From Candidatus Enterousia intestinigallinarum (lineage in GTDB: Bacteria > Pseudomonadota > Alphaproteobacteria > Rs-D84): a stretch of 64,000 nucleotides of DNA. Positions 14,334 to 52,052 of this stretch are shown here, in pieces. Position numbers and translations under genes: made by a program. Each line of letters begins with the position of its first letter. Position 1 is the first letter of the stretch. The notes below the pieces were generated by a model. The model was not told the origin of the DNA and did not search any database. It worked only from the letters and a program-made list of their open reading frames with translations. The stretch is from contig DVJI01000012.1 of assembly GCA_018716885.1 (NCBI GenBank), forward strand, positions 78,050-142,049, read 5' to 3'.

Positions 14334-14665
14334 GCAGATGAGCAGAGCATAGCTGATTCCGGTTTTTCCGGAATTGGAGGAAAGTCCGGACTGCGTGGGA
14401 CAGCATACCGGCTAATGACCGGGCGGAGCAATCCGACGATTAGAGCAACAGTGACGAATCGATTAAAAATCGGGTGAAACGGGCAATCTCTATGCGCAGC
14501 AACCTCGAATAGGTCCCCGCTAAGCGTGTCCCAGGCGATGGGGACGGGTAGAGGGCTTGACATCTTGTGGTAACACATTATGCAGACTAATTATGCTCGC
14601 TACCCCGGGGTGGTTGGAAACGACTGGCCCGGGGCAGTACAGAATCCGGCTTATAGTTCATCTGC
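14334..14665 (+). ncRNA. rnpB: RNase P RNA (bacterial type A)
   Basis: Contains the conserved GGAAAGUCCGG block, a GGGUGAAA block and the 3' ACAGAAUCCGGCUUA block. A P1 helix forms between 5' GCAGATGA and 3' TCATCTGC. An intrinsic terminator follows. Confidence 0.8.
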
Positions 14666-14691
14666 AAAATCCGCCCTGTGGCGGATTTTTT
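14666..14691 (+). terminator. Intrinsic terminator of rnpB (aaaatccgccctgtggcggatttttt)
   Basis: Hairpin plus T-tract immediately after the P1 3' strand. Confidence 0.7.
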
Positions 14692-47740: not shown

Positions 47741-48169
47741 ATGGCATTACAGACAACTTCGTTCAAAATTGCACGCTATATATTGCTGGCATTGGTTTTG
47801 GTGCTGTGCATTGGGATAATAACGTGGACACTTATTGCACGCAATCGCGCTGACCTGTCAACATCCGGCACCGTTGAAAATGTTATACGCATAACAAACA
47901 CCGACCCGTGCGTGCAAAGCGTAAATAACGCCGTTTCACAAATGTGGGCATATAATGCCGCCAGCATTCCCCAGAAATACCGTGATATAGAATCACAATA
48001 CGTAAATGAAAAAATTACAACACGTATAAACGGTTCCTGTAATGATGTAAGATTTGTATGCCGCCCGGGGCAAATTCGGCGCGACTGTGATCCGTGTGCG
48101 CAGGGGTCGGCACGTCAGTTTGCGATGGAACAACAAATATCCGATATGATTGCCGAACAGTGCAAATAA
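47741..48169 (+). CDS. Membrane-anchored Cys-containing hypothetical protein (142 aa)
   Basis: N-terminal transmembrane anchor and a terminator downstream. No homology recognised. Confidence 0.4.
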   Translation: MALQTTSFKIARYILLALVLVLCIGIITWTLIARNRADLSTSGTVENVIRITNTDPCVQSVNNAVSQMWAYNAASIPQKYRDIESQYVNEKITTRINGSCNDVRFVCRPGQIRRDCDPCAQGSARQFAMEQQISDMIAEQCK

Positions 48170-48867: not shown

Positions 48868-49347
48868 TTAATTGCTGTAATAGCAATCTGCAGTGTACGT
48901 ATATGTTCCACTTGTGTCAGTTCCGGTTGTTCCAGACGGCAAATAACACGACGTAATCACAGTTGAACCGGCCACAGACGAACCACTGTTTGGACAGCAC
49001 GTACAACCAGATGAACCATTTATGGTTCTTCCATAATATCCCGCAGCACATCGGTATTGAATTGATGAAGTACACTTTGTTGATGTTGAACAATATCTAT
49101 ATGTACGACGTTCATAACCCGTTGCGTACGCCGTCCACGCTGACGGCGAACAGTTGGATGCTGTACACGTCGTACCACCACCAGACATAACACAGATTCC
49201 ACCGGGGCAATCCGTGTCCCTCGAGCACGCCAGTCCATCGGAAGGGCCGCCATCACAAATTCCACGTATACCAGCAACAGCAAACGTCGTACTCGATATA
49301 AATATGGGTATCGCAATAATTATAGTGGGTAAAATAAAATATTTCAT
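48868..49347 (-). CDS. Small secreted Cys-rich protein (159 aa), lineage-specific family
   Basis: Signal peptide MKYFILPTIIIAIPIFISSTTFA, 20 Cys, ribosome-binding site (AGGAG). Its C-terminal third recurs at 40494..40637. Confidence 0.6.
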   Translation of the reverse strand: MKYFILPTIIIAIPIFISSTTFAVAGIRGICDGGPSDGLACSRDTDCPGGICVMSGGGTTCTASNCSPSAWTAYATGYERRTYRYCSTSTKCTSSIQYRCAAGYYGRTINGSSGCTCCPNSGSSVAGSTVITSCYLPSGTTGTDTSGTYTYTADCYYSN

Positions 49348-49480
49348 AATTCAATCTCCTGATTTTTGTTGAAACAAAAAACCACCAGTTTTACTTGGTG
49401 GTCAGGAGGTTGACTACAATCATAGGAATTGTGCCGCGTATTTGGTATTCCGCGACCCTCCTGACCCGAAAATCAGGAGT
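49348..49480 (-). promoter_or_regulatory. Structured 5' leader of the 159-aa Cys-rich gene, carrying an internal intrinsic terminator and an anti-Shine-Dalgarno segment (possible attenuator or riboregulator)
   Basis: Read 5' to 3' on the minus strand: CUCCUGAUUUUCG, then hairpin GGUCAGGAGG...CCUCCUGACC, then terminator ACCACCAAGUAAAACUGGUGGUUUUUU, then ...AAAAUCAGGAG (the ribosome-binding site), then AUG. Confidence 0.3.
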
Positions 49481-49631
49481 TTGTTTTTCGTCGTAATACT
49501 AAAACGGGCGCATTTTTGCGCGCCACAGGTTTATATTCCGACGCCTATGCACGGGTAGTCACACCCCATTGACGGAACACCCGTCAACATTTATATGTTA
49601 TCGCATAGTATTTGAATATTCAAGGCAAAAT

Positions 49632-49660
49632 AAAAACCGCATTTCGCGGTTTTTATTTTT
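49632..49660. terminator. Intrinsic terminator after the 796-aa gene (aaaaaccgcatttcgcggtttttattttt)
   Basis: Hairpin plus T-runs. Confidence 0.65.
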
Positions 49661-49661
49661 C

Positions 49662-52052
49662 TTACAGCAACGGCGGGAAACAATCGCCACCGGCTTCTGG
49701 GCAACAGTTGAATCCCATATCACCCATATCGGTATAAACTTCACCAGTGCAGCACCCGTTCACGTCCGGCGCCGTACCGTCTGGACAGGTCGGCAAATCT
49801 TCAACCGTATCCGACCATACCACGGACGTTACAGATTGCGGAACATATCCGTCATCGGACGCCACCGATGCTTGGGATGAATTTAATCCGGATTGATTTT
49901 CCACCGGCGCGCTGACAATCGACGGACCGACTGTATCAACGGCCTGCATATTATTTTGACGCAATGTTTCGGTATCGTAATTTTCATCTGCGACAAACAT
50001 ATTTTCATTTTGTGAAACGTTATATGCCGGCTTGCTGGCCAAAATTTCTTCTTCAGTTGGAATTTCCGGCTTTGGTTCAGTGCTTGAAACTGGTGTGGTT
50101 ACGGCGACAGATTCAACAACCACATCAGCTGCTGGCACTTGTTCAGCAACCGTTTCTGGTGTATCAACAGGTTCCGGTTCTGGTTCTGTCACTGGTTCTG
50201 GTTCCGGAATTTCCACGGGAGCCGGTTCTTCCACAACAGGTTCCGGTTCGGGTTCTTCCACAGGAACGGGCACTGTTATTTGCGTTTCAACAGTTTCAAC
50301 TGCGGCCGGCGTTTCCAATTCCGGTATAAACGGACTGTCCGCATCAGTTAAATCATCTGCCTGTGCGGTTTCCGTTGTGGTTGGCACTGTTGCGGTTAAA
50401 TCAGGTGCATTTTCACTGGTGTTCTTTTGATACAACCACAATGTAAATATAGACAACCCAATCAACAACACCAACATTATATAATAAACTAATGTAGGTT
50501 TACGCGGTGCTGGATTACTTGGCGCCACATTACCAGTAATCGGCGACACAGGACGCGGCGCGGACGCAGCAGCCGAAACAGTTGACGCCGGCGGGACAGG
50601 GCGCGCCCCTGCATCTACCGCTGGCGACGCCGTGGCGGGCGCCTGGGGTTCTGGATTTTGTGCCGCTGGCAGCGGTTCAGATTCTGCATCTGGTACAACT
50701 GGCGAAATATTCGGCACCAGTTCAGAATCTAATTGTTGGGCAGAATTATCCGCGGCCGTCGGCATATTCACGGACGTAATTGTATCCAAAACCGGTGTTG
50801 TTGCTTTTTCATCTGATACACGCGGTGCTTCTTCACCAGTTACAGGTCTGACATTTATTGGCGCGTTGTCCGCACGCTTATCAGACGGTGGTGTGAACGA
50901 CAACGGTTTGTCATCAATAATATTTTCATACACTTCCGGATTGTCGGTAACCGGACTTGTTTCATCAGACACCGGACTGGAAACACCAAACTCAATCGGC
51001 TTAAACGCGATTTCTTCGTCCAATATTTCCGGGTCTTTATCAAACAGTGGTTTTACCGCATCATTATTTGTTTCATCGGCCATTATTTCCGCCTTTGGTT
51101 CTTCATTTATATTTTCTGTAAATTCCACGCGTTCTTCTTCATCAACAGGCATACGTGCAACCACATCATCATCAGACGCCACGGCCGCAACACTGGTATG
51201 TGCAGGCGCACCAACCGCAGTTGATTCAACAGGCGCAGAATCACCGGCCACGGATTCTTTGTCATCCGTATCAAAATCCACATCCGTATCATAAGACACA
51301 TTGTATGTTGTTGTAACCGATGGAATAGCATCGTGTGCCTGCGGGGCATCGACATCACGCACAACAGCAACCGGTGCACGCGCCAAAATTTCACGCGCAA
51401 TTTGTGCATCTTCGTCCGCAACAATCAGGCGCCGCTGTGCATTATCCAGACGTTTTTTTGCACGACGCAGTTTTTCATTTGTTGCATCAATCTGCGCATC
51501 CGTACGCAATATTTTAGACGCCGACTTTTTTGTCGGTTCACGTCCGACCTGTTTTTTCTGTTGCGACAACTTGGCCCGCAACTGGCGTAATTTCGTTTGC
51601 AGTTCGGCAATGCTTTCACGTGTTCTGACGATTGTTTCGCGTGCAGTTTCGGCATTTGCATCTGCAACGGCCAAACGTTCCGTCGCTGCGCGCCGGACGG
51701 AATCTTCACGAAAAGCAGTCAGTGCCGTCAGCGCCGCCGTCAAATCATCGCCATTTTCATATGCGTTGATTAAATTGTCGTATTCAGCCAAGCCGCTGTA
51801 TTCAATATCTAACTTTTGATATTTATTATTTTTCTTTGGGCGCACAGTTTCCAAATCAACGTTATAATCATTGGCCAAAATGTCATCCCATTTGCGGTCA
51901 CCAACCGGATTTATCACCAAAAGAGCATTTGGCTTGCGATCGTCCAGCGTGCTGTCCAAAACAAACACCAACTTATCATCGGCATCATAATACGCACGCA
52001 ACACGTTTCCGGCGATATTGTATTCCCTGAACGTCAAAACAGATTTATCCAT
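49662..52052 (-). CDS. Single-transmembrane protein (796 aa): cytoplasmic coiled-coil N-domain, one transmembrane helix, periplasmic acidic Pro/Glu-rich repeats and a Cys-rich C-terminal knot
   Basis: Ribosome-binding site (GAGAGGGAAAA) then ATG. Heptad-like region LRQLRAKLSQQKK...LRRAKKRLDNAQRRL. Transmembrane helix LVYYIMLVLLIGLSIFTLWLY. Repeat run EPEPEPVVEEPAPVEIPEPEPVTEPEPEPV. C-terminus CPDGTAPDVNGCCTGEVYTDMGDMGFNCCPEAGGDCF. Confidence 0.6.
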   Translation of the reverse strand: MDKSVLTFREYNIAGNVLRAYYDADDKLVFVLDSTLDDRKPNALLVINPVGDRKWDDILANDYNVDLETVRPKKNNKYQKLDIEYSGLAEYDNLINAYENGDDLTAALTALTAFREDSVRRAATERLAVADANAETARETIVRTRESIAELQTKLRQLRAKLSQQKKQVGREPTKKSASKILRTDAQIDATNEKLRRAKKRLDNAQRRLIVADEDAQIAREILARAPVAVVRDVDAPQAHDAIPSVTTTYNVSYDTDVDFDTDDKESVAGDSAPVESTAVGAPAHTSVAAVASDDDVVARMPVDEEERVEFTENINEEPKAEIMADETNNDAVKPLFDKDPEILDEEIAFKPIEFGVSSPVSDETSPVTDNPEVYENIIDDKPLSFTPPSDKRADNAPINVRPVTGEEAPRVSDEKATTPVLDTITSVNMPTAADNSAQQLDSELVPNISPVVPDAESEPLPAAQNPEPQAPATASPAVDAGARPVPPASTVSAAASAPRPVSPITGNVAPSNPAPRKPTLVYYIMLVLLIGLSIFTLWLYQKNTSENAPDLTATVPTTTETAQADDLTDADSPFIPELETPAAVETVETQITVPVPVEEPEPEPVVEEPAPVEIPEPEPVTEPEPEPVDTPETVAEQVPAADVVVESVAVTTPVSSTEPKPEIPTEEEILASKPAYNVSQNENMFVADENYDTETLRQNNMQAVDTVGPSIVSAPVENQSGLNSSQASVASDDGYVPQSVTSVVWSDTVEDLPTCPDGTAPDVNGCCTGEVYTDMGDMGFNCCPEAGGDCFPPLL

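Follow-up and report, generated by a model that had tools for sequence, protein, structure and literature searches.

A double-pseudoknotted, terminator-bearing leader RNA with an sRNA-Xcc1-type junction upstream of secreted-protein genes in Candidatus Enterousia

Closest described systems and the Enterousia locus

The c4 RNA of phages P1 and P7, like the leader described here, is a small folded RNA located upstream of the gene it controls and on the same strand, with two exposed segments that pair with a two-part site. Citron and Schuster are said to have placed such sites, in work of 1990 and 1992, both upstream (a1/b1) and at the downstream ribosome-binding site (a2/b2). The c4 RNA represses Ant synthesis (PMC8546580). 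Another small RNA, sRNA-Xcc1 (Rfam family RF02221), is an 88-nt RNA of Xanthomonas campestris (Xcc 8004), detected by Northern blot and rapid amplification of cDNA ends (RACE) (PMC2996969); it is found upstream of symE in integron cassettes (bioRxiv 10.1101/2025.06.18.660453), is present in seven copies in Xylella (PMC12189769) and has also been reported upstream of an ORF6N gene in APSE phages. Here, we describe a leader RNA that is new to Rfam 15 and to the searchable literature, in which a junction of the sRNA-Xcc1 type lies inside a double-pseudoknotted, terminator-bearing leader for secreted-protein genes. It is located in a 64-kb stretch of the genome of Candidatus Enterousia intestinigallinarum (contig DVJI01000012.1, positions 78,050 to 142,049; hereafter, the window), which contains one copy, on the minus strand. 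All coordinates are those of the window.

Enterousia belongs to the alphaproteobacterial order Rs-D84, gut bacteria with genomes below about 1 Mb and without the tricarboxylic acid cycle or respiratory chains (PMC12306168). The gene that follows the leader encodes a product of 159 amino acids, 100% identical to a hypothetical protein of Candidatus Enterousia intestinigallinarum. A Pfam search of this protein returned no family, and a Foldseek search of its AlphaFold model (medium confidence; predicted local distance difference test score, pLDDT, 72.5) against the PDB gave no match at E ≤ 0.001.

A preliminary description of the locus listed three elements between 49480 and 49348: a 10-bp hairpin, a terminator followed by a U6 run, and a 5' segment CUCCUGAUUUU complementary to the ribosome-binding site. 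All of them are present, within an element that is longer than the 133 nt first proposed. The conserved element comprises about 240 nt and reaches upstream to about 49588, with a promoter at 49623–49595; from the sequence, we infer a leader with a predicted start near 49588 and an end at 49348, of which 49480–49348 is the 3' half. That description proposed a structured leader with a built-in terminator and anti-Shine–Dalgarno logic, similar to an attenuator or riboswitch, or alternatively a short RNA that terminates ahead of the coding sequence. The general proposal of such a leader is supported in kind by covariation in many genomes and by the conserved upstream promoter. The structure is thus not confined to this locus, and the predicted start lies upstream of the hairpin, not downstream of it.

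Structure and conservation of the leader

Upstream regions of homologous genes were taken from public assemblies. One genome per species was scanned with the protein family, which gave 47 loci, all from gut Alphaproteobacteria or 'Rickettsiales' metagenome-assembled genomes (MAGs), and a metagenome pattern scan added 63 loci. Leaders were retrieved with nhmmer profiles and not with a full-length covariance model. There are 97 distinct copies of the type found in the window (class I) and 17 of a longer type (class II), all from gut Alphaproteobacteria MAGs (Enterousia, order Rs-D84). Pairs were counted in an alignment of 39 sequences (A4), with shuffled and slid alignments as controls. The features of the window copy, in 5' to 3' order, are given below with their conservation.

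49595–49623, minus strand: promoter with conserved sigma-70-type boxes, −35 TTGAAT (49623–49618), 17-nt spacer, −10 TAACAT (49600–49595)
49569–49587, minus strand: hairpin P1, TTGACGG-GTGTT-CCGTCAA; 97.8% of cells paired, 7/7 pairs compensatory
49552–49567, minus strand: hairpin P2, GGGG-TGTGACTA-CCCG; stem 94% paired, loop holding the 5' strand of pseudoknot PK1
49489–49543, minus strand: helix P3, CGTCG (49543–49539) with CGACG (49493–49489); 81% paired, compensatory changes
49524–49507, minus strand: optional hairpin P3a within P3, GGCGC..GCGCC, then TTTT (49504–49501); 92% paired, compensatory changes
49480–49488, minus strand: A-rich linker AAAAACAAA, conserved as GAAAAAnAAA
49469–49479, minus strand: competitor strand s1, CTCCTGATTTT (CTCCTGA + TTTT), pairing with s2 to form hairpin D through the CTCCTGA part (49479–73)
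49457–49466, minus strand: shared strand s2, GGTCAGGAGG, pairing with s1 (D) or with s3 (helix P5)
49433–49456, minus strand: hairpin P6 inside P5; 79% paired, 5 compensatory pairs
49416–49432, minus strand: hairpin P7 inside P5, loop TTCCTATG; 100% paired
49410–49415, minus strand: junction strand J (AGTCA+A), 3' strand of PK1 and, in the other state, part of the predicted anti-Shine–Dalgarno strand
49400–49409, minus strand: s3, CCTCCTGACC, 3' strand of P5, with its terminal GACC shared with the terminator stem (first 4 nt)
49376–49403, minus strand: intrinsic terminator T found by terminator scan, GACCACCA-AGTAAAAC-TGGTGGTT (49403–49380), 8-bp stem, then T6
49345–49366, minus strand: ribosome-binding region AAAATCAGGAGATTGAATT and ATG start codon (49347–49345), read from the sequence
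48868–49347, minus strand: predicted regulated gene, an open reading frame (ORF) for 159 amino acids, Cys-rich and with a signal-peptide-like N-terminus
49561–49557 with 49415–49411, minus strand: pseudoknot PK1, P2 loop TGACT with J AGTCA; 100% paired, 4/5 pairs compensatory
49548–49544 with 49426–49422, minus strand: pseudoknot PK2, ATAGG in the linker after P2 with P7 loop CCTAT; 94.9% paired, 5/5 pairs compensatory

The proposed structure is paired in 92.6% of the cells of A4, compared with 79.8% in shuffles and at most 56% in slid controls, and 230 cells show changes on both sides versus 58 in shuffles. At position 40-53 of P2, for example, GU, AU and GC variants occur and there are no mismatches. 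G-U pairs are frequent, and because many pairs are of this kind the fold is specific to the gene strand. In the window copy, a 171-nt stretch folds at −49.5 kcal/mol, against −32.8 ± 4.1 kcal/mol for its shuffles (z = −4.05), none of 200 shuffles being as stable. The 10-mer is by itself unremarkable (2 matches versus 0.93 expected); the evidence against chance is conservation, as over 100 related loci show these elements again, with compensatory changes. In register just upstream of P1, 87 class I leaders share a −35 box cTTGtaT, a spacer of about 17 nt and a −10 box TATAAT.

The arms of the hairpin noted in the preliminary description (s2 and s3) are fully complementary (100%), with a spacing of 47 nt rather than 46. 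The segment between them, first taken for a loop, consists of the two hairpins P6 and P7, which with the closing helix P5 make a three-way junction clamped to the upstream domain by the two pseudoknots. The topology of the junction is identical in class II, in Rfam RF02221 and in R1, a covariance model built from class II junctions only.

Both pseudoknots were revealed by an all-against-all covariation scan. Jointly, PK1 and PK2 are 97.4% paired (58.4% in shuffles, at most 50% in slid controls), with compensatory changes in nine of the 10 pairs; one PK1 pair is AU in 15 sequences, CG in 12, GC in 7 and UA in 5, with no mismatch. The pseudoknots are also conserved in class II, where PK2 is 100% paired (5/6 pairs compensatory) and PK1 92%. 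The 14 variants of PK1 and 30 of PK2 occur in 35 combinations among the 39 leaders, and each combination is unique within its genome. This diversity could reflect selection against cross-pairing of paralogous leaders, or mere drift followed by compensation.

In one leader (L023:2112-2369), PK2 is mismatched (5' strand UUUGG versus loop CGUAA), and in its near-twin L031 the two strands do pair (UUACG with CGUAA); L023 resembles a recombinant of paralogous leaders.

We consider it very improbable that the element acts as a DNA-level repeat, for instance one used for recombination or gene conversion in a family of variable surface proteins, instead of as a functional RNA. Its multiple copies (at least 10 in a genome of about 1 Mb), its position next to hypervariable secreted proteins and the recombinant-like L023 with its broken PK2 would be expected of such a repeat. 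However, covariation preserves pairing and not sequence, including in pairs about 170 nt apart that use all four Watson–Crick types; the many G-U pairs would be mismatches on the opposite strand; and the promoter, terminator and Shine–Dalgarno (SD) sequence are all in register with the structure.

The leader occupies a constant position before an ORF: in 94 of the 97 class I copies, an ORF with a signal-peptide-like N-terminus lies directly 3' of it. The corresponding tally for class II is unreliable, as the profile extends into the coding region. The proteins that follow leaders are mostly Cys-rich, with a few that are not. The entire 314-nt intergenic region is conserved even with different neighbours, where the gene has been relocated (L007-9) or lies after tolB (L010, L014). 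The median identity is 70% (nucleotide) between leaders and 23% between the adjoining proteins; constraint on the RNA is therefore much tighter than on the genes. In CANSHD, a genome of about 1 Mb, at least 10 leader copies are present, each before a gene for a secreted protein. For a leader of 240–300 nt in a genome below about 1 Mb this is a large investment, which points to RNA-based control of the surface or secreted repertoire in a lineage with few other regulators.

Five class I leaders from the metagenome scan (L070, L101, L113, L095 and L084) precede signal-peptide or membrane proteins with few Cys. Therefore, export, and not Cys content, may be the common denominator of the regulated genes.

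The class II leaders (about 300 nt; L017, L020, L021, L024, L028, L033, L040, L043, L048, L049, L060 and L062, e.g. L021:1984-2290) have the same topology as class I, with CCCTGACC as s1, GGTCGGGGAG as s2, CTCCCCGACC as s3 and AAGGGG as the SD sequence. They differ from class I in the P1 loop (AGGGAUA) and in the GGGGAG/CUCCCC/AAGGGG set, and have both pseudoknots in common with it. Some genomes hold both classes together. One class I copy (L044:2065-2302) has an additional hairpin, GTGCATAT..ATATGCGC, inserted in the end of P6, the place of the tip hairpin in class II and in sRNA-Xcc1; it looks like an intermediate form.

The optional hairpin P3a is kept in the long-form leaders and missing from the short-form ones. 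The terminator scan picks it up too: the region 49499–49524 (minus strand) reads GGCGCGC-AAAAAT-GCGCC followed by CGTTTTAG and looks like a weak terminator. P3a might cause pausing or early termination.

Competing helices, the terminator and the ribosome-binding site

Strand s2 pairs with s1 in hairpin D or with s3 in helix P5, and the two helices are mutually exclusive. Over the 39 leaders, D is 97.4% paired with 4 compensatory pairs, and P5 is 96.2% paired. The three strands co-vary, for example as CTCCAAC (s1), GGTTGGAGG (s2) and CCTCCAACC (s3), and because they change together both D and P5 are maintained. By conservation, the 5' CUCCUGA pairs with the 5' arm of the hairpin itself, and not with the SD sequence to which it had first been assigned.

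The terminator is 89% paired in the family, and its U run is nearly invariant. Its stem overlaps P5: alignment columns 239–242 pair either with s2 or with the 3' arm of the terminator, and both options are kept family-wide. With GACC held by complete P5, the terminator hairpin keeps a computed −2.8 of its −11.1 kcal/mol in the window copy and, on average, −2.9 of −10.8 kcal/mol in the family. Without pseudoknots, the two folds of the window copy are nearly isoenergetic (−61.3 and −61.7 kcal/mol). When only the 3' domain is considered, the fold with D and the terminator (OFF) is favoured by 2.5 ± 2.2 kcal/mol in the family; the contributions of PK1 (−5.8 kcal/mol) and PK2 (−3.2 kcal/mol) are of sufficient size to tip this balance. 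As in expression platforms, a GC-rich stem with a U run is located between the promoter and the start codon, and an alternative helix shares bases with the terminator stem. From the U run to the start codon there are only about 20–40 nt, which leaves no room for a second promoter.

The ribosome-binding region also has a partner in the leader. In the window, its segment AAAATCAGGAG (49366–49356, minus strand) is followed 8 nt later by the ATG at 49347. The strand J+s3 (TCAACCTCCTG) is complementary to the SD sequence and to its unusually conserved spacer CAGGAGATTGA; in the window copy, TCAACCTCCTGA is 92% complementary to TCAGGAGATTGA. The family mean of this duplex is −14.2 kcal/mol, versus −12.2 kcal/mol when SD regions are swapped between sequences, and in the CTCCAAC-type members the pairing shifts to AGCCTCC:GGAGGCT. 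The complementarity between s1 and the SD region, a central point of the preliminary description, is real in the window (15 nt, 93%) but strong solely in the clade of the window copy: the duplex is −15.9 kcal/mol in the window, −16 to −18 kcal/mol in that clade and −11.2 kcal/mol on average in the family, against −10.4 kcal/mol for swapped regions. Judged from these sequence comparisons, J+s3 is more consistently the conserved partner of the SD sequence, and the s1 pairing appears specific to the window's clade.

In our view, the leader probably controls the following gene in cis, as a bistable attenuator and translational switch with a promoter of its own. In fold A (OFF), s1 would pair with s2 in hairpin D and s3 would remain free, allowing the full 8-bp terminator to form; in any read-through RNA, J+s3 would cover the SD sequence and its spacer. 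In fold B (ON), s2 would pair with s3, and P5 would close the three-way junction with P6 and P7, clamped to the 5' domain through J and the P2 loop (PK1) and through the P7 loop and the linker after P2 (PK2). P5 would thereby take GACC, reduce the terminator stem to 4 bp and tie up the anti-SD strand, with read-through and translation of the secreted Cys-rich protein as the expected outcome. The choice of fold would be set by a factor that stabilizes the docked 5' domain or prevents it from docking; candidates are a small ligand, a protein, an ion, temperature and RNA processing. The data show the helices, the two pseudoknots, the exclusivity of D and P5, the bases shared with the terminator, the promoter and the fixed place ahead of an ORF; we infer that switching takes place in vivo, that fold B is the ON fold and that an input signal is received.

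Several points weigh against such a switch. The changes in D and P5 stem largely from a few shared substitution events, and the pairing between J+s3 and the SD region has modest support, with 71.8% paired and a weak result against shuffles. In the window's clade, s1 freed in fold B can cover the SD sequence over 11 bp (about −13 kcal/mol extra), so that by thermodynamics alone the SD sequence is covered in both folds. Neither a ligand pocket nor a binding partner can be put forward. For the closest known relative, sRNA-Xcc1, a free 88-nt RNA has been reported (PMC2996969).

The possibility that freed s1 covers the SD sequence in fold B suggests a second lock or the removal of s1. In a variant of the switch, RNase P would cut just 5' of s2 and remove s1, at once the competitor for s2 and an extra anti-SD strand, which would make the switch irreversible. 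P5 followed by ACCA (GCCA in class II) mimics a tRNA acceptor end, and RCC(A/C) follows the closing helix in class I, class II and the sRNA-Xcc1-like loci; such a cut would also account for s1 covering the SD sequence in the window's clade. RNase P processing of the P1 c4 precursor was reportedly described by Hartmann et al. in 1995. The organism has a class A RNase P RNA, whose gene is in the window (14334–14669, 194 bits) and bears solely on this speculative idea. However, the same ACC bases are needed for the terminator stem, and their conservation is already explained in this way. Built on analogy, this variant seems improbable to us.

The same set of data bears on a constitutive role, in which a non-switching structured 5' untranslated region (UTR) would stabilize the mRNA or hold expression at a fixed level, and would have spread with the gene family as this duplicated. 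The structure does start at the predicted 5' end, as in stabilizing 5' hairpins, and it always accompanies one expanding paralogous gene family. However, a full intrinsic terminator would be counter-productive in a purely stabilizing UTR, two mutually exclusive helices are both kept by compensation in nearly isoenergetic folds, and with leaders at 70% and coding regions at 23% shared ancestry alone is insufficient. We regard a constitutive UTR as improbable, and the bistable switch as the better description of the leader.

Translation of a leader peptide was another candidate for the control of the terminator. A conserved short ORF with its own SD sequence was not found in the leader in A4: the ATG at the base of P2 becomes ACG, GCG, TTG or TCG in several members and has no SD sequence. 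An attenuator of the leader-peptide type was therefore rejected. A pairing of the P1 loop with a terminator arm, seen by eye over 5/6 bases, was dropped, as it shows no covariation.

Comparison with sRNA-Xcc1, c4 and classical attenuators

The window copy has no match in Rfam at gathering or permissive thresholds and, for RF02221 in particular, none at the gathering threshold nor at E ≤ 10 in 49200–49750. Ten other class I loci also gave no Rfam match. The relationship to sRNA-Xcc1 is visible through class II: the leader L020 scores 56.4 bits over the full 87-nt RF02221 model (gathering cutoff 53), and five more class II leaders score 41.6, 38.5, 34.4, 33.9 and 33.8 bits, always over the junction. 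Conversely, R1 finds sRNA-Xcc1-like elements full-length with E values of 1e-7 to 1e-3, including on plasmids, in records of Nitratidesulfovibrio, Aeromonas, Pseudomonas and Neisseria. In the window, R1 gives 20 bits at 49400–49466 on the minus strand, with the closing helix alone aligned (the plus strand gives 17 bits); its matches to other class I leaders are full-length but weak (L035, 24.4 bits, E 0.007; L016, 22.9 bits; L007, 22.7 bits). The class II nhmmer profile matches 49425–49354 of the window with E 5e-5. Because the R1 match is weak and comes from the closing helix alone, we treat the window copy as a distant structural relative and not as a demonstrable member of sRNA-Xcc1.

The leaders and sRNA-Xcc1 have in common a three-way junction with a G-rich closing helix of 9–10 bp, a second arm with an internal loop of the AUACAA/GAA type, a third hairpin, a U-rich junction strand and RCC after the closing helix, and each is found immediately 5' of a gene in the same orientation. 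They differ in that class I lacks the tip hairpin of the second arm, and in that neither a 5' domain nor an s1 competitor belongs to sRNA-Xcc1 as described, whose closing helix also overlaps with no terminator. The associated genes are also different: symE, ant and BRO genes for sRNA-Xcc1, secreted Cys-rich proteins for the leaders.

There are also 57 phage records that contain sRNA-Xcc1; in Aaphi23, for example, it immediately precedes ant. In three sRNA-Xcc1-like loci compared by eye, each of two segments, the loop of the third hairpin and the 3' strand of the junction, is complementary to one of two neighbouring sites at the ribosome-binding site downstream: on a Nitratidesulfovibrio plasmid (L127:682-830), on a P. 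aeruginosa plasmid before a BRO-family gene (L128:697-830) and in phage Aaphi23 before ant (L132:501-625). In Aaphi23, UCUGUUUG pairs with CAAACAG, which overlaps the SD sequence, and UUUCGA with UCGAAA. This analogy suggests that sRNA-Xcc1 may act like the P1 c4 antisense RNA, by clamping a two-part site at the ribosome-binding site of the adjacent gene. The link also offers a testable mechanism for a poorly understood family, with a junction that would clamp the ribosome-binding site of its neighbour much as c4 does. In contrast with these three loci, the equivalent strands of the Rs-D84 leaders pair with a two-part site in their own 5' domain.

The kinship with sRNA-Xcc1 raises the alternative of a stand-alone small RNA of about 210 nt, from start to terminator, acting in trans like sRNA-Xcc1 or P1 c4, with the downstream gene expressed by incidental read-through. 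The terminator is indeed strong and conserved, the class II junctions match RF02221 (56.4 bits against the cutoff of 53, with five more at 34–42) with reverse confirmation by R1, and sRNA-Xcc1 has been seen as an 88-nt RNA by Northern blot and RACE (PMC2996969). Nevertheless, we find a trans-acting RNA rather unlikely. An ORF is immediately 3' in 94 of the 97 class I copies, and a second promoter does not fit between the terminator and the start codon; the strands that would contact a target are already occupied in cis by the leader's own 5' domain, with partners that covary copy by copy (35 combinations in 39 leaders); and J+s3 finds a complement in the SD region of its own leader.

The 5' domain of the leader is positioned like the a1/b1 site of c4. 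The two systems differ in several respects: c4 is a processed antisense RNA that acts in trans or in cis on the ribosome-binding site, whereas the ribosome-binding site of the leader would be covered by a different strand (J+s3); control by the leader, unlike that by c4, includes an intrinsic terminator; and the leader belongs to bacterial hosts and chromosomal genes for secreted proteins, c4 to phage immunity genes. For c4 (RF01695), no sequence or Rfam match was found in the window or in the class I and class II loci.

Classical attenuators (of the trp type, and the platforms of dual-control riboswitches) resemble the leader in having three successive overlapping pairings, here s1:s2, s2:s3 and s3 or the 5' arm of the terminator with its 3' arm. 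In such platforms, too, an aptamer-like closing helix shares bases with the terminator stem, and the strand released in the OFF fold sequesters the SD sequence. In contrast to them, the leader has no leader peptide and matches no known aptamer, and its 'effector' would at least in part be an internal 5' domain that docks through two pseudoknots. No known riboswitch aptamer family of Rfam 15 was found in the window or the related loci at any threshold used. The regulated genes offer no hint of a metabolite either, since their proteins fall in no known family. T-box and ANTAR elements were considered and dropped: they gave no Rfam match, and the UGG-containing arm of the terminator is not conserved in the CTCCAAC-type members.

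The literature searched on Enterousia, on Rs-D84 RNA motifs and on structured RNAs of gut Alphaproteobacteria contains no description of the leader. Its two covarying long-range pseudoknots, bistable core and conserved unpaired bases are hallmarks of a complex, functional fold, and because this fold is absent from Rfam the leader is a well-defined orphan riboswitch or ribo-regulator candidate. More tentatively, it may represent a new class of cis-regulatory RNA, in which an antisense-type three-way junction of the sRNA-Xcc1 or c4 kind would have become joined both to a terminator and to the 5' domain, an imitation of the junction's two-part target. Such a self-contained switch, 'addressed' by the PK1/PK2 code unique to each paralogue, might govern the whole secreted-protein repertoire of these gut Alphaproteobacteria with reduced genomes, in response to a ligand, a factor or a processing event.

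The leader is flanked upstream by a gene for a protein of 796 amino acids (49662–52052, minus strand). This neighbour is of low complexity, acidic and proline-rich, has a Cys-rich tail (CPDGTAPDVNGCCTGEVY..CCPEAGGDCF) at its end and falls in no family of Pfam. A perfect 14-nt inverted repeat, AAAATAAAAACCGC/GCGGTTTTTATTTT (49627–49659), flanked on both sides by A and T runs, looks like a bidirectional terminator; it closes the 796-amino acid gene just before the −35 box of the leader. A nearby ORF for 142 amino acids (47741–48169, plus strand) has a hydrophobic N-terminus and several Cys. Neither of these two genes carries a copy of the leader.

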